DNA from: Candidatus Bathyarchaeota archaeon
GTDB lineage: Archaea; Thermoproteota; Bathyarchaeia; Bathyarchaeales; Bathycorpusculaceae
Assembly (NCBI GenBank): GCA_963827165.1
Contig: CAWGZR010000005.1
Location: 1 to 64,000 of the forward strand
Reading direction: 5' to 3'
Length of the DNA: 64,000 bases
Below are positions 2,532-61,564 of this stretch, piece after piece; position 1 is the stretch's first letter; each line of letters starts with the position of its first letter. A program made the position numbers and the translations under genes. Under the pieces are notes generated by a model. The model did not search any database. It had not been told where the DNA came from and saw only the letters and a list, made by a program, of their open reading frames with translations.

Positions 2532-2602
2532 AAGATGCTGAAATATAGTATTAAATAGTTCTAAATAGTTAAAAGTTCTAAAGCTTCAGAGCATGTTCAA
2601 TA

Positions 2603-2884
2603 ATGTATGTCAAGCCAAAAATGAAATTATTTATAGCAGTAATCTTTGCAGTATTGGTCTCTCTTGCAATTGTTGGAGTAGCCTATTATCTGATTCCAGC
2701 TCAGCAACCTGTTTCAAGCTCGCCTTCTCCAGTGCTGCCAGGTCCATATTCGACTCAGCAACCTTTTCTTTCAAGCCAAAATTATGTGTGGCTTCTTGCC
2801 ATAGGTTTTATCGTTGCCGTTGGAGTTACTGCTTTAACGCTGTTGTTTTTAAAAAGGCGCAGACTAAGGAAGTCAAATTGCTAA
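2603..2884 (+). CDS. small two-TM membrane protein with Pro/Ser-rich loop
   Basis: Two hydrophobic helices and basic C-terminal tail KRRRLRK. Confidence 0.7.
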   Translation: MYVKPKMKLFIAVIFAVLVSLAIVGVAYYLIPAQQPVSSSPSPVLPGPYSTQQPFLSSQNYVWLLAIGFIVAVGVTALTLLFLKRRRLRKSNC

Positions 2885-3222
2885 CTGCCAAATTGGCATG
2901 TTAAGTTACAGATAATTAACAAAGTACCACTTGCTCTATTTATTAGAACGATTATCAAATAACAAGATTTTTTGAGATTATTTCGTTTCTAAGCGACACG
3001 GTCTTTTGATTATTCTCTCAAGACCAAATGCCATTAAATTTTTTGTTCTAAATTTTAGACAGTTGTTCTGAAGTGTAGAAATAACTACCACGTGACTATA
3101 AGTAAGACTTGAGTGTGAGGATATGAAAAAGGCTGACTTAGTCAGGACAACTCGTCATTCTGTTCTCGCAACTACCAAGTGCCAGGATAGCTTGAATTTT
3201 TTCAAAGTACACTCGGTGAGGG

Positions 3223-25108: not shown

Positions 25109-25429
25109 TTACCAGTAAACGTCATGGTCACGAACTACAAGGCAAACACAATTTGGATGCAGATTCACCGCAAAAGTGTCCTCATCAAGCCATTCTCCAT
25201 AAGGAAACATATCCTTCAACTCGTCCGGATCCTTCAGCTCGTAGACATCAGTATTATGGTTCTGGCAGTTCTGGCAAAGATTAGGGCTTGGTTTTAGGCC
25301 TTCAGTTACATAGCGCCAAACAGTGTAGCGGATTGCGGGATTAACGACGGCTGCCTTGAAAGCCTTAAACGCAAGAAAAGCGTTGACTGCATCCTGCATG
25401 TCATTGTCTTGGAATTTCTGAGATAACAT
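25109..25429 (-). CDS. truncated minor head protein (Mu gpF/SPP1 gp7-like C-terminal domain)
   Basis: CQNC...LHPNCVC motif after portal. Confidence 0.75.
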   Translation of the reverse strand: MLSQKFQDNDMQDAVNAFLAFKAFKAAVVNPAIRYTVWRYVTEGLKPSPNLCQNCQNHNTDVYELKDPDELKDMFPYGEWLDEDTFAVNLHPNCVCLVVRDHDVYW

Positions 25430-26873
25430 AGCTTTTCCCGTTCATGCTGATCTGTCTTTGAGAAGCCTTTAGTTGTGGAGAAAGCTGCGATGCACCGCTT
25501 TTGCTGACGGCGTCGTCGGGCATTGCTTGGTCGTAACTTTGACGCATAGTTGCCAGGTTACCCCAGACTTCTTCAGGCAACCCAAGTTTTGCTCGGGCTT
25601 CTAGATCTCCGGTTAGGCCTGCTTGGAAGAGTGCAATTTGTTGGTCAACCAAAACGTCTGCTGCGGGCTCCCAGATTGGTCGCCACTTTATCTTTGGAAT
25701 CTTATCCGAGGTTATGAGCGATCCCGGAAAGTCACCTTGCAGGATAGCTGGGAACAACTCCGTTTCGTAAGTGTACTTTATGTGTTCCTGTCGCATGCGA
25801 AGGCGGGTGACGAATTCCTGCATAACTATGTCAGCGGTTGATCTGTTTGCGTTTTCAATTTCTCCTAAAAACAACTTGGGAACGCCTAACTGTGCGTTAC
25901 GTTGAGTTAGCAGGTAGTTTAGCCACCATTCAACCCGCAAGCCGCGAGTCATGCTGTCAATAGGTATTGGAGTTACGTCGTGTTTGAACGCGAGGTCAGT
26001 TCCTTGCTGGCGTTCAGCCATGCCATCGATAAATGCCTGCAGTTTAGTGTCAGACCACTCGGCCTTTTCTGTCCCACATTGATACGCAAGGATGGGTTTG
26101 GTGTAAATCTTCATGATGGTTGCCATGTCATGCTGGAAATCATCGGTAAGCGCCTGAATCAGCAAGGTGCTTCTTAGCAGGCTAACGCCATAAGCGCTGT
26201 TGTACCTGCCCGAACCTTGATTGTGCAAAGTACGCAAGATGTCTTGGGGCTCAAAAATTGCAGGAGGCACAGAGAGCAACTGAATGTAGCCGAAAACGTT
26301 CATGTAAGCGTCTCGGCGAATCCGGACATAAAGAGGATCCAGAGGCTTTAGCCACTCGACCCGCTGGTTATCTTCATCTCGGCAAAGCTCAGTGACGCTA
26401 AAGCCGTTAACCAAAGCATTGTTTTCTTGAATACGGGCAACAGATGGAACGTTATGGGAATCCAGCCACTCGCTCAAATAATCGTTGAATGTAGAGTTGC
26501 CGCCTTCCAGCTCAAGCCAATTGCTAACAGTCAAGTTAACGCGGACGTCCACTGCTGCAGCAATGTATGGGTTGTACTCGTAGAGGGCTTGCAGTTTCGG
26601 CAGATCATCAACCGGTGTGATTCCCCAAATTCTATCATACAAGCTGCTGTAAGGCGGAGTGACAAAGCCTATTCCAGCACTTTTCAAAGTGTACCTACTC
26701 AGGTACTCTTGCAGAACCGCATCCCGAGTGGACCTAAATGGGATCTCTTGCTCAATTTGTTGCTTCGCCGTATCTTCTGCCACATTGCGCATGGGATTTG
26801 GCAACGAGTTATTTCGTGGGGCAGGGAGGATTTTGCTTGTGACCTGTCCAAAAGCGGCTCTGAAGTTTACCAT
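25401..26873 (-). CDS. portal protein
   Basis: LKPLDP, AYGVSLL, LGVPKLFLG..NANRSTA motifs; follows TerL. Confidence 0.9.
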   Translation of the reverse strand: MVNFRAAFGQVTSKILPAPRNNSLPNPMRNVAEDTAKQQIEQEIPFRSTRDAVLQEYLSRYTLKSAGIGFVTPPYSSLYDRIWGITPVDDLPKLQALYEYNPYIAAAVDVRVNLTVSNWLELEGGNSTFNDYLSEWLDSHNVPSVARIQENNALVNGFSVTELCRDEDNQRVEWLKPLDPLYVRIRRDAYMNVFGYIQLLSVPPAIFEPQDILRTLHNQGSGRYNSAYGVSLLRSTLLIQALTDDFQHDMATIMKIYTKPILAYQCGTEKAEWSDTKLQAFIDGMAERQQGTDLAFKHDVTPIPIDSMTRGLRVEWWLNYLLTQRNAQLGVPKLFLGEIENANRSTADIVMQEFVTRLRMRQEHIKYTYETELFPAILQGDFPGSLITSDKIPKIKWRPIWEPAADVLVDQQIALFQAGLTGDLEARAKLGLPEEVWGNLATMRQSYDQAMPDDAVSKSGASQLSPQLKASQRQISMNGKSYVISEIPRQ

Positions 26874-26888
26874 TTACTGAGTACATCC

Positions 26889-28127
26889 TTAATGTCTGTT
26901 CGGGAATGCAATTCCGACGCCTGATGATGGTGAGGGTGAGCGTTTTAGTTGCCAAGCGGCTAATGCGAGAGCGATAACTGCGTCGTCGTGGTAGCCTTCA
27001 GGTGCTCCATATTGGACGTTGCCGCTTCGAGTGGTTTTGTAGCCGTACAGCTTAAGCTCGTTAATCAAAACAGGAATTGCTGGAATTGTGAGCTGGTGGT
27101 TTTCAATCATTATGCTTAGGTTTTCTATGAGGTCTTTTTTTGTGGCATTAGTAAATTTGTAGCCGCCCACATGCACTTTCTCTCGGCAAAGCTCATCTTC
27201 AATTGGGTCACCGACTCCGGTGCTGTCAATTAGCAAACGGGCATCATAGTTCTGGGCCAGTTGAACGATACGTTTTCTTTGAAACACCCAATCCAACTCA
27301 TTGAACCTGTCAAAGGCAACCAAGTGACCGTCAATATCTAAGACTATTAGAACTGTGAAATCTTCGAGTTTTGCAAGGTCGCCGCCCATGACGTACTTCT
27401 TTTTTGGTTGAGGAAGTTCAAAGTCGCCTTCAACAATGCGATCCACTCCTCGGAAGACACTGCCGACATCTTCTAAGAATTGTGCCAGGACCTCTTGGCG
27501 ATAAGCCAATTCAGGCATATCTCGGGCAAACGAGGCGATTTCGGCTGGATCCAAATATGGGTTGCTTGCACTTGGGAAGCTCCAGCTCTTGTAATCTGGC
27601 TGTTTAGGGTCTTGCCCGCGAGTCCATAGCTGGAAATACCAGTTGTGCCCTCTCGGTGTGCCTGTGAAAAAGGCGATGCCTTTCTCATCCATCAAAGCAG
27701 GCCTAAGAGCAAGTGTCCAGGCTTCCTCTGCAATTTGTGCGCCCTCGTCTACCCAAAGAACCTTTACGCCTTGGCTACGAAGCGAATCGGGGTTGTCGGC
27801 GCTCTTGAACCAAATATGCCGATTGCCCGACAGTATGACGTGACGGTCGGCTCGGTGGATTTCCTCAATTAGCTCACTTGGGCAGTAGTTGAAGAATTCG
27901 CTCCATTGCCGCTGGGTATGCCAATATGTGGGTGCAACCGCGAAGCCGACTATGCCTGTTTTTTCTCTGCCTTTGCCTTGCTGCCACATTTGCCTTATGA
28001 ATTCGTTGGCGCCGCAGACGGTTTTGCCCCAGCGCCTTCCACAGTTGAGCACTCGGAACCTTGCGGGGTGGAAGTGGAAGCTAAGTTGTCCTGGGTGGGC
28101 TTTGTATCGGATGGGGTATATTGTCGT
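26889..28127 (-). CDS. terL: terminase large subunit; frame extends 25 codons upstream of the ORF call to an ACG
   Basis: Walker A CGRRWGKT, LWVDEGA, GTPRG, nuclease GGDLA / IDSTGVG / HDDAVIALA; upstream HPGQ adenine-binding motif in frame. Confidence 0.95.
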   Translation of the reverse strand, partial: TTIYPIRYKAHPGQLSFHFHPARFRVLNCGRRWGKTVCGANEFIRQMWQQGKGREKTGIVGFAVAPTYWHTQRQWSEFFNYCPSELIEEIHRADRHVILSGNRHIWFKSADNPDSLRSQGVKVLWVDEGAQIAEEAWTLALRPALMDEKGIAFFTGTPRGHNWYFQLWTRGQDPKQPDYKSWSFPSASNPYLDPAEIASFARDMPELAYRQEVLAQFLEDVGSVFRGVDRIVEGDFELPQPKKKYVMGGDLAKLEDFTVLIVLDIDGHLVAFDRFNELDWVFQRKRIVQLAQNYDARLLIDSTGVGDPIEDELCREKVHVGGYKFTNATKKDLIENLSIMIENHQLTIPAIPVLINELKLYGYKTTRSGNVQYGAPEGYHDDAVIALALAAWQLKRSPSPSSGVGIAFPNRH

Positions 28128-28519
28128 TTAAGGTCCTCCGGATCAACCCATATAATCTGGTCTGGTTCATTCTGCGTCTGTTGCTCAGTTGGTTTAGCGC
28201 CGCTAAGCTCGGTCTGCTCCATGTTGATTTGACGCATGAGATTTAGAGCAGCAATTCGAGCTCTGTCGCTTTTCGCTTGTGAGTACATGAAGCTGGCTTT
28301 ACGGTACAACTGCTCATGACGGTTCTGAGCTTTTAGCAACGCACGCGAGAGACTTTGAATAAGCGGCTGCCAAGTTGACTTTGTCTTCAAGTCGTGGTAG
28401 CCAGTGACTTTGGAGACGCCGAATTTGGCGCATACTTCCTTTACTATTTCACGATCGTTTAAGCCGTCTCCTTCGAGCTTTAACTCAAAGAGGTATCTTT
28501 CAAGCGTTTCTTCGAGCAT
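27995..28519 (-). CDS. terminase small subunit (N-terminal HTH)
   Basis: GLNDREIVKEVCAKFGVSKVTGYHDLK; immediately upstream of TerL. Confidence 0.75.
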   Translation of the reverse strand: MLEETLERYLFELKLEGDGLNDREIVKEVCAKFGVSKVTGYHDLKTKSTWQPLIQSLSRALLKAQNRHEQLYRKASFMYSQAKSDRARIAALNLMRQINMEQTELSGAKPTEQQTQNEPDQIIWVDPEDLKRQYTPSDTKPTQDNLASTSTPQGSECSTVEGAGAKPSAAPTNS

Positions 28520-28540
28520 AAGAATCAGTTTTTTTAAGTT

Positions 28541-29014
28541 TCACTTAACTTTTTTTGGAACATATTTTAAAGAGACGGTTAAGCGTCCTCTACTGTTTGA
28601 GCGGACGAGTTCCCGGTTTATTCTTGTGTCGCCTCTGCCATGGCTGCCATGCCCAACACGCTTGATGATCCAGTTACCAAGGTCTCCACGGACCAGCTGT
28701 GGGTTACTCGTAATTAGATAGAACGGCAGTCTGGTCTGGGATGTGTAGAGCTCTGCGATAAAGTTCAGCAGACGCTTACCAACACCTATCCCTTGATAGT
28801 CAGGGAGAACCACAAGACGGCTAACCCGATAATAATTTGCTTTCATACGCACGTGTGCCACAGCGATAAAAGCAATGGGTTTTTGGTTGTACATCGCTGC
28901 GTAGCATCTGACTCCGGCGCCGAGTTTGCTGTTTAGATAATGATATTGCCGAAACATCTGCCACATGGAACCGCCGCACCGATAAACTTGGAGCTCAACG
29001 GGCGGCCTGCTTCT
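28541..29014 (-). CDS. GNAT (Mom-like) acetyltransferase, entered by a -1 shift from the ATPase frame
   Basis: WQMFRQYHYL; RVSRLVVLPDYQGIGVG acetyl-CoA motif; upstream RPPVELQVYRC in the same frame after the A7 run. Confidence 0.85.
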   Translation of the reverse strand, partial: RSRPPVELQVYRCGGSMWQMFRQYHYLNSKLGAGVRCYAAMYNQKPIAFIAVAHVRMKANYYRVSRLVVLPDYQGIGVGKRLLNFIAELYTSQTRLPFYLITSNPQLVRGDLGNWIIKRVGHGSHGRGDTRINRELVRSNSRGRLTVSLKYVPKKVK

Positions 29015-29617
29015 TTTTTTCGGCTAAACTCCATTGTGTCCGTGCAGAAAACCCAATCGGGATCAAGCCAATCGATAACATCATAGTGGCACGTAACGGC
29101 AATGAATTTCTTGTTTGTTCTTCGGACGGCTTTGCTTATGGCATAGGCACTAACTTTAGCAATCTCACGGTCTACGACGCTTGTAAACTCGTCAAATACG
29201 ATTTGTGGCTGTTCATAGACTGAGAGCTCTTGCGATGTCTACTCGCATTTTCTCTCCTTGACTGAGGGCATCGTAGCTTTTGAGCCAATCAGGGGGTGAA
29301 GCAAAACCAACGCTGCAGAGGTTCTTTGTTATCTCGTTTACCTGTTGTCCTTCAGGAAAATCGTCGAGAATAGATTCATGGGTATAGGCAAAATCTTTGA
29401 TGTAGCTGTCAGCGAAGAGAGTTTTGGCTATGCTCGTTTTACCAGTCCCGCTACGACCTACTATGACGCCGATCTGCCAAGTATTATCCTCAATCGGAAT
29501 TTGTCCAGTGAAGTGCTTCTCCATCTTGCAATCAACGAGTGTGAAGCTGCCGATGACTGATTGCGCTCGAAAACTGTTTGGCTTATTCCAGGTTCTCATA
29601 AAGTCAAAAGACGGCAC
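28933..29617 (-). CDS. ABC-family ATPase interrupted by a +1 break at CTA TGA A (29213-29215)
   Basis: Walker A GRSGTGKT and signature LSQGE in frame 1; Walker B IVFDEFTSVVDR and H-loop VTCH in the +1 frame. Confidence 0.85.
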
Positions 29618-30132
29618 TTGTACCCCTCACCTGTTAGTTTGTTGAAGATGGCTTGTTGGTGAACCTCATCTTCGCATTCAAGTACAACCTCAAAAGTCGC
29701 AGCAAGCGTTATGCCTTTTTCTTCGCTTAGAAGGTTCTTGAGTTTCTCATCGGAAACCATAACTAAGTACTTGAGTTCTTCTTCCTTTCCCGCTTCGATA
29801 ATGCGTTCATACTCAGCCCTGTCAAGTTCAGGGTCATGCTTGCCTCTGAGCTTGTTTAAGACTTGTCTGAGTAATCTGCGGTCAACATCTTCTACTGGTA
29901 GGCGTATAACTGAGACTTCAACCATGCCCAAGGCTTTAGCGGCTGTGTAGCGTTGTTCTCCATCAGCGATTAAGAGATCCTTGTTGGTTATGATGGGAAC
30001 GATGAAGCCCCATTTCTTGATAGAAGTTTTAAGGCGTTCGAGCTGGTCTTTGCTCATCTTATTTGGGTTCTGCCCATCCGTCTTAACGTCGCTGATCTTT
30101 ACCGTTTCAGCGGCAGGAATAACTATTGACAT
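29596..30132 (-). CDS. ParB/Srx N-terminal domain protein
   Basis: NPNKM...SIKKWGFIVPIITNKDLLIADGEQRYTA. Confidence 0.9.
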   Translation of the reverse strand: MSIVIPAAETVKISDVKTDGQNPNKMSKDQLERLKTSIKKWGFIVPIITNKDLLIADGEQRYTAAKALGMVEVSVIRLPVEDVDRRLLRQVLNKLRGKHDPELDRAEYERIIEAGKEEELKYLVMVSDEKLKNLLSEEKGITLAATFEVVLECEDEVHQQAIFNKLTGEGYKCRLLTL

Positions 30133-40180: not shown

Positions 40181-41201
40181 TGTAGTCACCTCAGACGTTA
40201 AATATAAATAATGTAGTCACCAATTATAATTTGTGCACATTGAAATTAGGGAAAAAAACGGTTCAAAAAAATATTACCTTGCCCATTCCTTCAGGGATGC
40301 CGACAGCGTTAAGAAAGTTCGTGTTTTTCTCGGTAGAGACTTGACCAATGAAGCTCTTCTGTTGCGTAAGAAAAGCGCTGAAGCAGAACTTAAACAAAGA
40401 GTCAAGAAAGCAAAGGCGATAAACAGCCCTTTCTTTACTGTTCTATCGCCCATTGAGTTAAAGGAACTTGCAACGCTGGAGGTGCGTGGGGAGCTGCGCG
40501 TGCGCCATCTTTCAGAGTCTGATTGGACCAAGTTCAAGGAAACCTTCACTTACGACACAAACGCCATAGAAGGTTCTCGCGTAGACGTCAACGAAGTGAA
40601 AAATATTCTGGAAAACAAAGGTTGGCCTCAAGATAAAGGCAAAGAAGATATCGCTGAAACCTTCGGGGTGGCAGATGCAGTTGACTATATACGATCAACA
40701 AACGAGCACATCTCTTTAAAGCTTATCCAAGAACTCCATCTCACAGTCTTCAAGAATTCAAAACATTTTGCAGGAGATTTCCGCGAAAAAGGTGTAGAAG
40801 TGGTGGTCGCGGATGCCTTGGGCAATATTGTTCATCCGGGAGCTCCGTCGCAACATATTGAGCCATTGCTTAAAGAGTTAGTGCGATGGTATAACAAAAA
40901 CAAAACAAAGTGCCCGCCTCTTGTTTTGGCTGCTGTAGTTCATAACCAATTTGAAGTCATTCACCCCTTCCAAGATGGCAACGGGAGAGTCGGGCGACTA
41001 TTGCTAAACAACATATTACTAAAACATAATCTGCCACCCTTGAACATCGAATTAAAAAATCGAGCCCAATACTACGCCGCCCTACAAGCATACGAAAAAG
41101 AAAACAACATACGCCCAACGTTGGAGCTCATGCTAAAAGAATACCGTGCCCTCAAAAAAATCATCAAATAGGTGACTACAAAAAACGGAAATGTAGTCAC
41201 C
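40181..41201. repeat. four copies of TGTAGTCACC around fic
   Basis: Direct at 40181, 40212 and 41192; inverted (GGTGACTACA) at 41171. Confidence 0.9.
40233..41171 (+). CDS. fic: Fic family protein with N-terminal basic beta domain
   Basis: HPFQDGNGRVGR catalytic motif; TNAIEG inhibitory-helix motif. Confidence 0.95.
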   Translation: MHIEIREKNGSKKYYLAHSFRDADSVKKVRVFLGRDLTNEALLLRKKSAEAELKQRVKKAKAINSPFFTVLSPIELKELATLEVRGELRVRHLSESDWTKFKETFTYDTNAIEGSRVDVNEVKNILENKGWPQDKGKEDIAETFGVADAVDYIRSTNEHISLKLIQELHLTVFKNSKHFAGDFREKGVEVVVADALGNIVHPGAPSQHIEPLLKELVRWYNKNKTKCPPLVLAAVVHNQFEVIHPFQDGNGRVGRLLLNNILLKHNLPPLNIELKNRAQYYAALQAYEKENNIRPTLELMLKEYRALKKIIK

Positions 41202-44622: not shown

Positions 44623-45132
44623 CTATTCTTTCTTCGTTAGTTTTGTTGCTTCTTTGATTGCTTGGACGTACACTTCTTCTTTTAGCCTGAAGCCTTCCTC
44701 TATCAACTCGTCAAGAGCCTGCAGAAATCCGTCAAATTCGATTTTCCTTTGCTTAAGAGCCATAAGCAAAACGAAAATGGTTCCCCGAGGTGTTAAGCCG
44801 AGTAAACGTGCCGCAGAACGAGCGGACACTTCATCTATGAGAACTATGTCCAAGTTTAGCTGCTTTGCAAGGGACAAAGCTTCTTCCTCTCCCTTGTCCA
44901 ACTCTATTGGTATCTCGAAAGTGTCAGCAGCCACAACTTTAATCCAGCCCCGGGCAACCGCGTTTTCAACGATGTAGGCGTCTTTTCGTCCGAGCGATTT
45001 TCCTTTTTCAACTACCTCGTTCCAAACTTCTTTTGGAATCAGGATTTCTCCAAAGAGTACTTTCAAAAGGTCTAGCTTGCCTATTTTAGCTAGGTAAATG
45101 AGGGGGGTTGAGTTGGAGACGGCGCCTGGCAC
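44623..45132 (-). CDS. PIN-domain protein (DUF3368 family)
   Basis: VSNSTPLIYL..LDKGEEEAL..VLIDE..AR..LGL..GT. Confidence 0.9.
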   Translation of the reverse strand: MPGAVSNSTPLIYLAKIGKLDLLKVLFGEILIPKEVWNEVVEKGKSLGRKDAYIVENAVARGWIKVVAADTFEIPIELDKGEEEALSLAKQLNLDIVLIDEVSARSAARLLGLTPRGTIFVLLMALKQRKIEFDGFLQALDELIEEGFRLKEEVYVQAIKEATKLTKKE

Positions 45133-45440
45133 TAGGAAGCCTTCCGTAGGCCTTTCAAATCTTCCTTAAATTCTGCCAGCGTATAAGGAACGTGAACTTC
45201 TTTTCTTTTTGCCTCATCCATCATTTCCCAAACTGACAAGCCGCATTTTCTAGCCGCCTGCCAGAGCGTTATTTTGCCTTCTTCATATTCCTGTAAGTTC
45301 TTTTCAATTAGCCAGTCCTTCGCTGCTTTCATAAGGAACCTTCGTATGACAGTAGATTTGTCCATTCCTTCTTTTTTGGCAACTTCGTCTATGATTTTGG
45401 CGAGATCATTTTCTACTCTAGTTGTTAAGGTCGTCGGCAC
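45132..45440 (-). CDS. UPF0175 family antitoxin-like protein
   Basis: N-terminal RHH-like region, YEEGKITLWQAARKCGLS; coupled to the PIN gene. Confidence 0.85.
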   Translation of the reverse strand: MPTTLTTRVENDLAKIIDEVAKKEGMDKSTVIRRFLMKAAKDWLIEKNLQEYEEGKITLWQAARKCGLSVWEMMDEAKRKEVHVPYTLAEFKEDLKGLRKAS

Positions 45441-45518: not shown

Positions 45519-45596
45519 TGGTGGGGCTGCCCGGATTTGAACCGGAGTCTATAGAGCCCAAGTCTACAAGCCTAGACCAAGCTAGCCGACAGCCCC
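45519..45596 (-). tRNA. tRNA-Pro(TGG), CCA encoded
   Basis: GGGGCTG acceptor; GTAGA CTTGGGC TCTAT; GTTCAAATC. Confidence 0.95.
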
Positions 45597-48513: not shown

Positions 48514-50163
48514 TTATTCTTCGCCTTGGGGACCGCCCATTCCGCCTGGGCCGCCTGCTCCGCCTTTGGGCGATTTAGCTGTTATCACGTCGTCGATGCG
48601 CAGTATCATGGCTGCTGATTCCGCTGCTGATTTGATAGCTTGTTCTTTAACAACGATTGGCTCGATGACTCCGTTTGCGATGCTGTCTTGCAATTTGCCT
48701 GTGAAGACATTGATGCCAAAGTTTTTGCCGTCCGCTGTGTCGTGTTTTTGGCGAAGTTCAACGAGGATGTCTATGGGTTCTAAACCTGCGTTTTCGGCGA
48801 GTGTGCGTGGGATGACTTCAACGGCGTCTGCAAATGCTTCAACGGCTAGTTGTTCTCGTCCGCCGACTTTGGTCGCGTATTTGCGTAGTTCCTTAGCGAT
48901 TTCGACTTCAACTGCGCCGCCGCCTGGAACAATCTTATTGTTTTCAATAACGTCAGAAACCACTGATAACGAGTCAATCATGGCTCTTTCTGCTTCGTCA
49001 ACGAGGCGTTCAAGCCCTGCGCGGATAAGTATTGCAACGCTATGCGCATCTTTGCATTTTTCGACGAAGATCATTTTGTCGTCGCCGATTTTGCGTTCTG
49101 TAACTGATCCTGCGAAGCCAAGATCTGCAGCTTTAAGGTCGTCTAGATCGCTGATTATGCGTGCACCTGTTGCTCTTGAGAGTTTCTCCATGTCGGATTC
49201 TTTTACGCGTCGCGCCGCCATTATGCCGACTTTGGATAGGAAATGCTGAACCATGTCGTCGATGCCTTTCTGGCAGAACACCACGTCTGCGCCTGAAGCC
49301 TTAACTTTGGTAACCATCTTCTGCAGCATGTCGTCTTCCTGATTTAGGAAAGCCTTCATCTGAGACGGGTCTTTTATTCGGATTTCCGCGCTTATCTCGG
49401 TTTTCTCGATTTCAAGCGCTGCATCCAGCAAAGCGATCTTTGCGTTTTCCTTACTCTTAGGCATTCCAGGGTTTACGACTTCTTTGTCGATGATTATGCC
49501 TTGGATAAGTTGGGTTTCAAGAAGGCTTTTACCTGTTTTCTTTATGAGTTGGATATTATCGATGTCCGCAATGGTTTTGTCTCCCCGTTGCTCAGCAATC
49601 TGTTTGACGGCTTCGATGCTTATTTCCGCCAAATGCTCGCGTGCGCTGCCGACGGCCTTGCTGCTCATGCTTGTTAAGGAAACCTTGAGTAGGGTGGCTT
49701 TGTCGTTGACGTCCAGTGGAGTGGCAAGTTTGTTTATGACTTCGATAGCTTTCTGGCTGGCTTTTCGGTAGCCGCTGACCAATATTATTGGGTGGATGTT
49801 TTGGTCAAGGAGTTCCTCAGCTCTTTTGAGGAGTTCACTTGCAAGAACCACTGCAGTTGTTGTTCCGTCGCCGACCATGTCGTCTTGGGTTTTTGCGATT
49901 TCAACCATCATTTTGGCTGCGGGGTGTTCAACGTCGATTTCCTTGAGGATTGCGGCGCCGTCGTTTGTTATTGTTATGTCTCCCAGGCTGTCGATGAGCA
50001 TTTTATCCATGCCTCTTGGGCCAAGGGTGGTTTTGAGCACTTCGCCTATGACGCGTGCCGCCATGATGTTGTTTCTTTGGGCTTCTTTGCCCCTGCTTCT
50101 TTGTGTTCCTTCTTTTAGAATGAGGACTGGCTGTCCTGAATTGGTTGTTGTTAAATACGCCAT
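48514..50163 (-). CDS. ths: thermosome (group II chaperonin) subunit
   Basis: [26 protein letters not shown] tail. Confidence 0.98.
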
Positions 50164-60407: not shown

Positions 60408-61001
60408 ATGGCTGCCCTAACCGTTTATGAGGTTCCGACTTGGAGCCAAATCTACGATATGCTGCTGAACCAAGCAGCTAAAATCCGAAGCGACGGCTAC
60501 GTTCCCGATATCATAGTTGGCATCGCCCGGGGCGGTTTGGTGCCCTCACGAATTTTGGTCGATCTTCTGGAGACGCGGGATTTCGCTATAATCACCATAG
60601 AATATTACATTGGGATAGGCCAAACTCAGCGGGAACCCATCCTAAAACAGTGCCTCCATATCCAACTAACGGGCAAGAAAGTTCTGCTGGTTGATGATGT
60701 TTCTGACGGCGGTAAAAGCTTGCAGCTTGCCAAGAAGCATTTGGAAGATCAATGTGCCAAAGAAATAAAGATTGCCACCATCTACTGCAAACCAGGAACA
60801 GTAACTACACCCGATTATTTCGAGAAGGAGACAAGCCACTGGATCGTTTTTCCTTGGGAAGCCCGAGAAACCCTGATTAAAATAAGGCGCAAAATCAGTG
60901 GCGAACGCGCTATAAGCAGAGAAGTCTCCAATCTTGTGCGCTCGGGGTATCCAAAGCAGTTGGCTGAGAAACTCCTCCAAAACGATGGAAAGATCAAATA
61001 A
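60408..61001 (+). CDS. type I (purine) phosphoribosyltransferase
   Basis: GIARGG, VLLVDDVSDGGKS, PDYF..WIVFPWE. Confidence 0.92.
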   Translation: MAALTVYEVPTWSQIYDMLLNQAAKIRSDGYVPDIIVGIARGGLVPSRILVDLLETRDFAIITIEYYIGIGQTQREPILKQCLHIQLTGKKVLLVDDVSDGGKSLQLAKKHLEDQCAKEIKIATIYCKPGTVTTPDYFEKETSHWIVFPWEARETLIKIRRKISGERAISREVSNLVRSGYPKQLAEKLLQNDGKIK

Positions 61002-61564
61002 TGCTGCATCAAATAAAAGAATTTGGGGCCTACGCTGAAATAACTGGGTTTAGAGCCGTGAAATTCTCGGATGCAGAAGCCTTCCTCAAGGAATGCCGAA
61101 AGAAAACCCGCTCTGTTGACCTGCAATTCTATGACGCTGACCTGATCGCGACCCGGAAACACCTGTATTTCGCTGTCCTCAATGCACTGCAAGCTTTCCA
61201 CAACAAAACCAACGTTGCCAAAAGCTTAGCTGTCGAAACCATGCTTTACGCTTCTGCCCAACGACAAATACAGCGAGCCATCCAACGATGCGGCATAAAA
61301 CCCCAAACTCAAAACATGGCTGTCACAATAATTGGGGAAAACCTCGTTGAAATTCAAGCGTCGCTGCAGAAAATTAGCGCATGCATCAAAGTTAAGCCCG
61401 ATGAAACCGTGTTGGAAATAACCAGGGTTAAGCTTGAGAAAATTAAGTCATCTTTCCAAATCAAAGATGAAGAGGTCAAATCGGTGATTAGCGGCGGCGA
61501 CTTGGAAGCAGCAGTTGTTGGCCTCGTCGTTGAACGTGCAGCCCTGCTTGCAACTCAACTCTAA
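61001..61564 (+). CDS. cgi121: KEOPS complex subunit Cgi121
   Basis: HLYFAVLNA..AKSLAVETMLYASAQRQIQRAI..G. Confidence 0.9.
   Translation: MLHQIKEFGAYAEITGFRAVKFSDAEAFLKECRKKTRSVDLQFYDADLIATRKHLYFAVLNALQAFHNKTNVAKSLAVETMLYASAQRQIQRAIQRCGIKPQTQNMAVTIIGENLVEIQASLQKISACIKVKPDETVLEITRVKLEKIKSSFQIKDEEVKSVISGGDLEAAVVGLVVERAALLATQL

Follow-up and report, generated by a model that had tools for sequence, protein, structure and literature searches.

TmcA/NAT10 is an ATP-dependent RNA cytidine N4-acetyltransferase. At dnaX (tau/gamma), E. coli shifts the frame by -1 at A_AAA_AAG, which a hairpin follows, and Thermus dnaX uses transcriptional slippage at a run of nine A (A9). In phages, a GNAT coupled to an ABC ATPase has been predicted to be an enzyme of DNA-base acyl modification (Iyer et al., 2013, cited in a passage of PMC7824862, section 3.4.7); an earlier note on this DNA had referred to this prediction among other literature, and that literature is real. 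The passages of PMC7824862 on ABC-GNAT do not mention a -1 shift. According to excerpts of PMC8211752, -1 frameshifting in Archaea has been demonstrated for one gene, fucA1 of Saccharolobus solfataricus, where programmed -1 frameshifting occurs at A-AAA-AAT, and has been reported for tail genes of haloarchaeal viruses. No prior report of an ATPase-GNAT frameshift was found in literature searches; it is absent from passages of PMC3711429, PMC5009743 and PMC10885494, and the supplement of PMC3711429 (GeneTack clusters) may list the family.

Here we describe, in the window (the whole stretch of 64,000 nucleotides that was analysed), what is probably one gene of a tailed archaeal provirus, in which programmed -1 slippage would yield both an ATPase of about 227 aa and an ATPase-GNAT fusion of about 358 aa once one extra base in the assembly is left out. 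The gene shares with the ABC-GNAT of Iyer et al. (2013) and with phrog_11143 the same domain pair in the same order, and the occurrence in phages beside DNA-handling genes, but here and in 51 of 79 sampled relatives the domains are joined only via a -1 shift. The likeness to dnaX lies in a homopolymer of lysine codons, in two products with a common N-terminus and in the presence of both flavours within the ATPase-GNAT family, short runs that have a hairpin and long runs that lack it; the gene family and the host domain are different, and whereas the shifted product of dnaX is short, the shift here would add a whole catalytic domain. As described in the excerpt of PMC8211752, fucA1 is likewise archaeal and has an A-rich heptamer, a putative stem-loop and a full-length enzyme reached by the shift only, and in its full-length orthologues the length of the run is changed by a single A, as it is in one relative of the present gene (L046). 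However, the interrupted form of fucA1 is confined in that account to strains P2 and 98/2 of a single species, whereas for the ATPase-GNAT gene it is the usual form in a large virus family and extends to bacterial phages. The tail chaperones G/GT are comparable in that bacterial and archaeal tailed viruses conserve a -1 shift there, which sets the proportion of short to long product, but G/GT is a structural chaperone of the tail module and the ATPase-GNAT is a predicted enzyme of the packaging-side module. If our reading is true, a conserved frameshift in an enzyme gene would join the few archaeal cases.

Gene layout and domains of the module

All of the genes concerned lie on the minus strand. 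The first encodes a protein of 178 aa with a ParB N-terminal domain (29596..30132; Pfam ParB_N, E 4.9e-8), whose best PHROG match is phrog_498 (ParB-fused DNA methyltransferase, E 1.5e-24), followed by phrog_620 (E 1.3e-20). Its 3′ end overlaps by 22 nt the start of ABC ATPase part 1 (29213..29617 as in the window; ABC_tran, E 9.2e-7), which begins with GTG at 29617, preceded by ggtgagggg at 29631-29623, codes over 29617..29216 and holds both the Walker A motif GRSGTGKT and the signature LSQGEK. Part 1 is closed by TGA 29215-29213, which is a product of the extra base. ATPase part 2, together with the 0-frame tail (28933..29214), carries Walker B IVFDEF, the D-loop and the H-loop CHYD, is open in the +1 frame only (29238..28936; stop TAA 28935-28933) and is 52% identical to residues 128-202 of phiE255 gp29. 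The GNAT acetyltransferase domain follows in the -1 frame (28541..29023; Acetyltransf_1, E 5.5e-9) as a piece of 160 codons plus stop that is open only in the frame of ATPase part 1 (29023..28544), and its Pfam matches (Acetyltransf_1, _7 and _10) are general GNAT families. Beyond it come a terS-like ORF of 174 aa (27995..28519), which overlaps the terminase large subunit gene by 58 nt, then terL itself (26889..28052; Terminase_6N, E 1.7e-15; Terminase_6C, E 1.9e-6; phrog_2, E 3e-37) and a portal protein (25401..26873; phrog_9232, E 3.3e-18).

The ParB, ABC ATPase and GNAT genes and both frame breaks were thus found where the earlier note had placed them. Its description of these genes as overlapping directly upstream of terS was right for ParB and the ATPase, but the GNAT stop (28541) and the start of the next ORF (28519) are 21 nt apart without overlap; similarly, the neighbour that it called terS does lie upstream of terL and overlap it, but this ORF gave no Pfam or PHROG match and is named by its position only. 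The same contig carries a thermosome gene (48514-50163) and Cgi121 (61001-61564), and for this reason an archaeal host, as had been proposed, is supported.

When the three pieces were compared with phrog_11143 (357 positions), they matched it colinearly at positions 11-126, 128-201 and 197-351 with E values of 4e-25, 2e-27 and 2e-31, respectively, covering the whole profile in one order; we therefore read them as one gene in three frames and not as a chance pattern. The four ABC motifs given above could be read directly in the window, where they correspond to invariant columns of an alignment of homologues from which the window was excluded (A4), and the signature S and the Walker B D are spaced 24 residues apart with the extra base dropped. 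The GNAT piece has the fold of the superfamily and its acetyl-CoA motif Q/R-x-x-G-x-G/A (as YQGIGVGKR), with Q77, G78, G80 and G82 invariant or nearly so. An AF2 model of this domain (pLDDT 85.2) had GNAT folds as its best Foldseek matches, and the PDB gave 327 matches at E <= 0.001, the listed ones being acyltransferases of the GNAT superfamily. The AF2 model of the in-frame relative L046 (pLDDT 81.6) comprised an ABC nucleotide-binding domain and a GNAT domain, and its top Foldseek matches were MalK, MsbA, HlyB and MJ0796.

The -1 junction and its conservation

The ATPase and GNAT pieces meet at a run of seven A on the minus strand (29014..29020; T7 on the plus strand), which reads cgA AAA AAA g in the ATPase frame, i.e., A_AAA_AAA. 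The run begins at codon position 3 and forms an in-phase X_XXY_YYZ heptamer, and directly upstream of it the -1 frame is closed by TAG 29026-29024. Sequence data from two independent public runs of two studies, X1 and X2, were available for comparison, in addition to partial data from X9. The length of the run was confirmed by an X1 contig spanning 28400-29531; X2 contigs end at about 29001-29011 and X9 is partial, and neither is informative on this point. An RNA library (X18) gave one window-identical contig of 185 nt (29266-29450), possibly DNA carry-over, which reaches neither break. A -1 shift at the run had been proposed to restore a linker, and this agrees with the natural in-frame fusions, in which RRRPPIDLDVRQ and RRQRPKIKLQIFRC stand where the shifted product of the window would read ...EFSRKK|RSRPPVELQVYRC...; the trans-frame junction peptide of the predicted fusion is SRKKRSRPPVELQVYR. 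The zone 28936..29013 on the minus strand is read in two frames, as the 0-frame tail and as the -1-frame linker with the first GNAT strand and the W..F..YHYL motif.

The close loci comprised 14 of the 15 IMG/VR loci found and 8 copies in the window's own genome, the remaining IMG/VR locus (L006) being excluded because it ends before the junction. All 22 of these close loci place the GNAT at -1 relative to the C-terminal piece of the ATPase, and all have A7, A8 or A9 at the junction, the flanks having diverged down to 62% protein identity. A 0-frame stop lies 79-80 nt past the run in all 22, and in 14 of them a stop closes the -1 frame at most 3 nt upstream of the run or in its first bases. Another 8 genomes of the same genus, of which two are single-contig, contributed ten further loci, and all 10 again showed the -1 relation with an A7-A9 run at the junction. 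For the wider family, the 80 best of no fewer than 532 IMG/VR relatives were sampled (9 contigs repeat IMG/VR contigs of the close loci), and among the 79 with both parts the relation is -1 in 51, in-frame in 27 and +1 in one. An in-phase X_XXY_YYZ heptamer is present in 50 of these 51 -1 loci, an A or T run of at least 7 falls in the permitted shift window in 45, and 35 have A9 (28), T9 (5) or A10 (2); A or T runs of 7-10 bases mark nearly every -1 junction. Diverged homologues thus conserve both where the shift occurs and its direction. Together, these comparisons support the view, already taken in the earlier note, that the -1 shift is recoding, and conserved recoding at that.

The -1 layout was also seen in isolate phages, as judged by sequence or annotation coordinates, namely Streptococcus 315.4 and phiNIH1.1, Lactococcus P335 and Thomasclavelia TR-TP1. 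In phiNIH1.1 the GNAT region is unannotated and the ATPase is labelled 'ABC transporter'. In-frame fusions are found in phiE255 (gp29), a Porphyromonas phage and Nonlabens P12024S (gp24), whose residues up to about 189-202 align with part 2 and those from 199-205 onward with the -1 piece. L046, with an A10 run and a continuous ORF of 361 aa, is nested among A9 sisters in the tree, a quick IQ-TREE run with long-branch warnings. Given that 27 of the 79 relatives are plain fusions, making two products is not essential to the enzyme.

The GNAT frame past the 0-frame stop has a pN/pS of 0.26, as against 1.32 and 1.43 in the other two frames, and is accordingly under purifying selection; a shared pseudogene was rejected on this ground. 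In the overlap zone (75 nt) the 0 and -1 frames score alike, with pN/pS values of 0.55 and 0.51, respectively, against 1.68 for the third, and the -1 frame is not singled out; pS is about half of its downstream value.

Mode of slippage and alternative readings

In the proposed scheme, normal decoding from GTG 29617 to TAA 28935-28933, with the extra base removed, would give the ATPase-only product of about 227 aa, while a fraction would slip back one base at cgA AAA AAA g (29020-14) to give the fusion of about 358 aa, and the GNAT domain would be reached only through this shift. We infer that the two proteins are both produced, in a proportion that is relevant; since ABC ATPases act as dimers, a dimer mixing short and long subunits is conceivable.

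A GC-rich hairpin, GGCCGCCCG...CGGUGCGGC with an inner stem (28973..29006, minus strand; centroid fold), is a putative stimulator of frameshifting. It begins 7 nt past the run in 12 of 12 distinct A7-type sequences, for which the 50 nt folded gave a mean MFE of -21.9 kcal/mol and a mean z of -2.84; the A9-type sequences (n = 27) lack the hairpin and gave a mean MFE of -6.0 kcal/mol and a mean z of +0.17 over 50 nt. This split by run type at 50 nt is the informative fold analysis; the 98-nt fold of the whole region was not better than shuffles (z -0.65), and RNAalifold, applied to the region past the run in 32 sequences, returned no consensus structure and none shared with the A9 types. In the hairpin alignment 97.4% of cells are paired and no pair is changed on both sides, and dual coding (RPP / RCG in the -1 frame) could explain the conservation. 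For the window copy, with A7 and a hairpin 7 nt downstream, -1 ribosomal frameshifting is the most likely mode suggested by these features, and for the A9/T9 relatives without a hairpin, slippage of RNA polymerase, with one A or U added, is no less likely.

Transcriptional slippage could also be put forward for the locus as a whole, with RNA polymerase adding one A at the run and some mRNAs encoding the fusion in frame, and we regard this as possible but not the account to be favoured. Known sites of transcriptional slippage are A or T runs of about the length of the RNA-DNA hybrid, and the 35 relatives with A9, A10 or T9 resemble them in using A as well as T, in run length and, at the A9 sites, in lacking downstream structure. 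The window's run, however, is A7 only, below the roughly 9 or more A or T of such sites, and it combines an exact in-phase A_AAA_AAA with a hairpin at the spacing typical of ribosomal stimulators, which lie 5-9 nt downstream; moreover, Streptococcus-type relatives shift at T5/C5 or C_CCT_TTA, which are too short for polymerase slippage. Natural controls are at hand in the in-frame A10 sisters and in the pairing of A7 with a hairpin versus A9 without one.

The second break, +1 in the context CTA TGA A, had been taken in the earlier note for a programmed shift like that of prfB or else for an inactivating lesion of the provirus. That it is genuine in either sense is improbable. Its TGA is present in the window sequence, and extra ATPase frame breaks also occur in L018 and L020 of the same genome and in L114 of a congeneric complete genome, so that integrated copies do decay; but the breaks of L018 and L020 lie at positions other than 29215, and the data for that position point the other way. 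In X1 and X2, the only bridging contigs (1131 and 790 nt) are identical to the window save for one letter, having one base fewer at 29215 at depths of 8.88 of 8.88 and 7.55 of 7.55, respectively, and a loose end in X9 is likewise without the extra base. Homologous loci aligned to the window with a 1-nt insertion in the window. The CTA-TGA context is lacking in all 21 other close loci, and the ATPase is uninterrupted at this site in all 14 IMG/VR loci, including L001 (96% identity). Without the extra base the frame is continuous through ...ARALSLEQPQIVFDEF..., and a prfB-like shift, for which a conserved site, an in-frame stop and real DNA would be expected, was rejected because the site is not conserved and the base is lacking in the X1 and X2 contigs; a real lesion was not borne out either. 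What stands at 29215 is either an error of assembly or a rare variant and does not represent recoding. The read evidence consists of assembled contigs only, and contigs drop rare variants; the base could be a real variant of the source population. The +1 'recoding site' illustrates that one error of assembly is enough to imitate a signal of the prfB type.

Phase variation, in which the run length would change in the DNA and switch the GNAT on or off within the virus population, is very unlikely. Homopolymers are mutational hot spots, in-frame A10 loci stand beside A9 relatives (L046; also L085, L096 and L098 versus L072, L074 and L077), and one T9 locus is +1, but of the 28 tree rows in the window's clade 27 share one 'off' state and +1 does not occur, the close loci (22 of 22) and the genomic copies (10 of 10) are all -1, and lineages without long runs keep the -1 layout. 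Two separate proteins, with the ATPase ending at its stop and the GNAT starting internally or by coupling, can hardly be credited. The ATG at 28966 has GGTG/GGCGG a few bases upstream, and separate genes were called by the annotators of Thomasclavelia TR-TP1 and Lactococcus P335, but 8 of the 22 close loci have CTG, CTT or TTA instead of this ATG, and the earliest possible start in L004, L005 and L014 is 120-168 nt past the run and within the GNAT domain. Moreover, the -1 residues upstream of the ATG (R.RP..E/D.L.V..C) match in-frame linkers and the PHROG profile from 197, and the invariant junction homopolymer would be left without a role. The GNAT has no conserved start codon of its own, and independent initiation was rejected on this ground.

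Predicted function

On our preferred reading of one gene with a programmed -1 shift, the ATPase-GNAT gene sits in a packaging-side module of ParB, ATPase-GNAT, terS-like and terL genes, and its product would acylate a nucleic-acid base with ATP and acyl-CoA, with ParB as a putative partner on the DNA side. We predict acylation because of the published ABC-GNAT prediction and by analogy with TmcA; DNA-base acylation by ABC-GNAT is itself a prediction in the literature, in which the enzyme figures as a candidate for a new DNA-base acylation, and knowing its active form, here a predicted trans-frame fusion, is a precondition for expression and assay. The substrate of the GNAT was not identified from its Foldseek neighbours, which are generic (TM about 0.6), or from a PDB sequence search, which returned generic GNATs only. 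The proposal in the earlier note of a DNA-modifying, anti-restriction enzyme is a hypothesis, and its suggestion that recoding limits a toxic product is pure speculation. Since Mom uses charged tRNA, according to an excerpt of PMC13219725, its chemistry may differ from that of the window GNAT. Tentatively, and with clear doubt, the slippage might be of ancient origin and common to the whole family of an enzyme of nucleic-acid acylation, ParB-linked and packaging-side, in archaeal viruses and bacterial phages, setting the ratio of ATPase-only product to fusion in a mixed ABC dimer and working interchangeably through a heptamer and hairpin on the ribosome or through A9/T9 at the polymerase.

Like the predicted fusion, TmcA/NAT10 (2zpa) combines in one chain a P-loop ATPase and a GNAT that acetylates a nucleobase. 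It was the only ATPase-plus-GNAT chain among the Foldseek matches listed, at rank 26 for the whole L046 model and rank 7 for the GNAT alone, with TM scores that are low (0.30 for the whole model, TMq, and 0.58 for the GNAT), and in the PDB sequence search the acetyl-CoA motif weakly matched NAT10 (E about 0.01). The TmcA ATPase is helicase-like, however, whereas the window ATPase is ABC-type and without DUF1726 or tRNA-binding domains, and the set of helicase-type ATPase, GNAT and tRNA-binding domain that marks TmcA/NAT10 is not found in the window protein; the likeness is best taken as an analogy of mechanism and not as membership. In isolate phage genomes, gene callers split or miss the GNAT, and the family is therefore under-recognised.

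Anatomy and genomic setting of the split gene

On the minus strand of the window, a ParB gene (30132-29596; ParB_N, E 4.9e-8) is followed by ATPase piece 1 (GTG 29617 to TGA 29215-29213), which holds the Walker A (GRSGTGKT) and ABC signature (LSQGEK) motifs, then by piece 2, which is read in the +1 frame as far as TAA 28935-28933 and includes Walker B (IVFDEF), the D-loop and the H-loop (CHYD), and finally by the GNAT piece, which returns to the original frame and extends from 29023 to its stop codon (28541-28543). Re-reading of ORF and motif positions showed that the anatomy, coordinates and shift directions described in an earlier note were correct. All three pieces matched a single PHROG family to which no function is assigned, phrog_11143; on its 357-position profile they cover 11-126, 128-201 and 197-351 (E 4e-25, 2e-27 and 2e-31, respectively). 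The same note had placed terS directly downstream; the position holds, but the ORF there (27995-28519, minus strand) gave no family match and is therefore terS-like by position only. TerL (26889-28052) and portal (25401-26873), both on the minus strand, were clear assignments, and scaffold, neck and tape-measure genes lie further downstream. The proposed archaeal host is borne out by a thermosome gene (48514-50163; Cpn60_TCP1, E 2.5e-179) and Cgi121 (61001-61564) in the same window. Between the viral genes and the thermosome lie a Fic/DOC protein (40233-41171), a toxin-antitoxin-like UPF0175 and DUF3368 pair (44623-45440) and tRNA-Pro (45519-45596); this region may mark the provirus boundary or hold its attachment site. 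Window ORFs of at least 100 aa included no recognisable integrase.

The 3.13-Mb archaeal genome contains eight diverged copies of the ParB/ATPase-GNAT module (GNAT protein identity 70-82%), those outside the window being L017-L023 at C9:316265, C11:190275, C13:39412, C10:404464, C5:330081, C12:75879 and C3:302540. Among 24 further congeneric genomes, 13 had matches, up to 10 per genome; 16 genomes representing other families in the order had none. This distribution suggests a genus-specific provirus family present in multiple copies.

The frame break at 29215

Logan contigs from four public sequencing runs were compared with window positions 28400-29800. The sole bridging contigs of run X1 (study P1; 28400-29531) and run X2 (study P2; 29011-29800) were each identical to the window except that the one letter at 29215 was left out, and a loose end from run X9 also lacked it; without this base the ATPase reads ...DIARALSLEQPQIVFDEF... 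Alignment with homologous loci placed a 1-nt insertion in the window between two substitutions, locus L001 (96% protein identity) having CAGCCTTGAGCAG at the equivalent of the window's CAGTCTATGAACAG. Every one of the 14 IMG/VR loci has an unbroken ATPase frame, as do 19 of the 22 close loci overall; the three exceptions are the window itself, L020 (another 1-nt insertion, with SQGEK changed to SQWEK) and L018 on contig C11 (a 1-nt insertion within piece 1, at about 1040). Since CTA TGA A is absent from the independent assemblies and from the other loci, the site is neither conserved nor independently present, and the suggestion of prfB-like +1 recoding there was rejected. The +1 break at 29215 is one extra base, as read from assembled contigs, which can hide rare variants.

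Extra 1-nt ATPase frame breaks at non-homopolymer sites beside substitutions, like the window's extra base, were observed in L018, L020 and L114 (G003:C1:504950-506550, a single-contig congeneric genome), the last with two; either genuine decay or errors in the consensus could explain them.

A conserved -1 junction and its likely mechanism

A search with the GNAT piece gave 15 IMG/VR loci, 14 of which reach the junction, in addition to the eight copies in the window's own genome. The -1 break is conserved: in all 22 close loci the GNAT piece stands in the -1 relation to the ATPase C-terminal piece with an A7, A8 or A9 run at the junction, while the flanking bases vary (ccgAAAAAAAgaag, atAAAAAAAAAgtta, gtAAAAAAAAAcgat...), and the same relation and A run were found in 10 of 10 loci from eight other genomes of the genus (two single-contig), which answers the question of slippery-site conservation in homologs. 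In 14 of the 22 the -1 frame is closed by a stop, located either no more than 3 nt before the run or in its first bases, and in every one a 0-frame (ATPase-frame) stop lies 79-80 nt past the run; the shift is therefore confined to the run or the bases immediately following it. Beyond the 0-frame stop, the GNAT frame had a pN/pS of 0.26, the two alternative frames 1.32 and 1.43. ATG 28966 is missing in 8 of 22 close loci, and three have no start codon at all for 120-168 nt. Natural single-ORF fusions (Burkholderia phage phiE255 gp29, 376 aa; a protein of 377 aa from a Porphyromonas phage; Nonlabens phage P12024S gp24, 379 aa) can be aligned with both pieces: with piece 2 as far as residues about 189-202 and, beginning at residues 199-205, with the -1 piece. 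The window's RSRPPVELQVYRC matches the linkers of these fusions, in agreement with the earlier proposal that a -1 shift at A7 restores the linker.

An IMG/VR profile search returned at least 532 relatives. The 80 best-scoring were retained, nine of these contigs repeating the close-locus set. Among the 79 with both parts, 51 were -1, 27 in-frame and one +1. The longest run within the permitted shift window of the -1 loci was A9 in 28, A7 in seven, T9 in five, A10 in two, T7 in two and A8 in one, the other six having shorter runs or C_CCT_TTA; only L079 lacked an in-phase heptamer. Seven of the 27 in-frame loci have A10 at the same spot, one of which (L046) nested among A9 sisters in a quick tree, and the others have no run at the junction; several of these run-less loci belong to replication modules (DnaB, primase, PolA) and are not beside ParB/terminase. 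The sole +1 locus, L073 (IMGVR_UViG_3300027896_001936; junction about 1985), has a T9 run, its T9 relatives being -1, and is probably a run-length variant. Matches occurred in 57 isolate-phage records, and of seven inspected, four had the -1 layout with short runs (T5/C5, G5), namely Streptococcus phages 315.4 and phiNIH1.1, Lactococcus P335 and Thomasclavelia TR-TP1, and three were in-frame.

The window site reads cgA AAA AAA g in the ATPase frame, an exact A_AAA_AAA heptamer, and in the centroid fold a GC-rich hairpin (29006-28973) starts seven nt past the run. This hairpin was present in 12 of 12 distinct A7-type sequences (mean MFE -21.9 kcal/mol over 50 nt, mean z -2.84), with pairing retained in 97.4% of cells; no pair changes on both sides, so coding constraint could account for the pairing. 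It was found in none of 27 A9-type sequences (50-nt folds; mean MFE -6.0, z +0.17). In the A9/T9 relatives, polymerase slippage may do the job of a ribosomal shift. The window copy itself we read from its sequence as a putative ribosomal -1 frameshift site, which would yield two products, an ATPase with a 0-frame tail (about 227 aa) and an ATPase-GNAT fusion (about 358 aa). Within the 75-nt overlap, pN/pS was about 0.5 in both frames and pS was halved, which fits dual use, short of proof. The case would be a further instance of a known phenomenon, programmed -1 slippage; the literature passages searched, recoding papers among them, did not mention a frameshift in this family.

The 0-frame tail (28936-29013) shows roughly the same conservation as the -1 frame (e.g., ..QLTSQFINAAIPCGRSLGNITI vs ..RPLSSKFIGAAVPCGRCFGNIII, each before a stop), either as a by-product of dual coding or as a functional tail. 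A 185-nt contig from the peat metatranscriptome X18, identical to the ATPase part at 29266-29450, is a weak hint of transcription, DNA carry-over being possible.

Context for the predicted function

For phage GNATs coupled to ABC ATPases, a role in DNA-base acylation is a published prediction (PMC7824862, citing Iyer et al. 2013). An AF2 model of the in-frame relative L046 (pLDDT 81.6) showed an ABC nucleotide-binding domain followed by GNAT; Foldseek ranked ABC transporter ATPase domains top and TmcA (2zpa), an ATP-dependent tRNA cytidine acetyltransferase, 26th. When the window GNAT was modelled by itself (pLDDT 85.2), the matches were generic GNATs and TmcA ranked 7th. In a scan of the immediately preceding ORF at 44 loci, ParB_N was present in 14 of 29 with the -1 layout, where the other 15 ORFs are ParB-sized without a Pfam match, and in 5 of 14 in-frame loci; TerL was frequent downstream. 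A recent paper (PMC13229309) describes phage thymidine dioxygenases that depend on co-encoded ParB, which by analogy makes it plausible for a DNA-modifying enzyme to have ParB as a partner. Directly after GNAT, an ASCH-domain gene was observed in the Streptococcus phages (L024/L025, 3029-3406) and in the A9-type contig L053 (2835-3257), and a PurN-like formyltransferase gene follows GNAT in phiE255 and the Porphyromonas phage (L027, 3025-3639; L028, 3019-3492); both are possible partners in a pathway of base modification. We regard the folds, the ParB/TerL neighbours and these genes as context for the predicted function. In the deposited Streptococcus phage genomes the family is systematically mis-annotated: the GNAT part (L024, 2699-2968; L025, phiNIH1.1, 2576-3029) either has no annotation or is called a short hypothetical protein; the ATPase bears the name ABC (iron siderophore) transporter.
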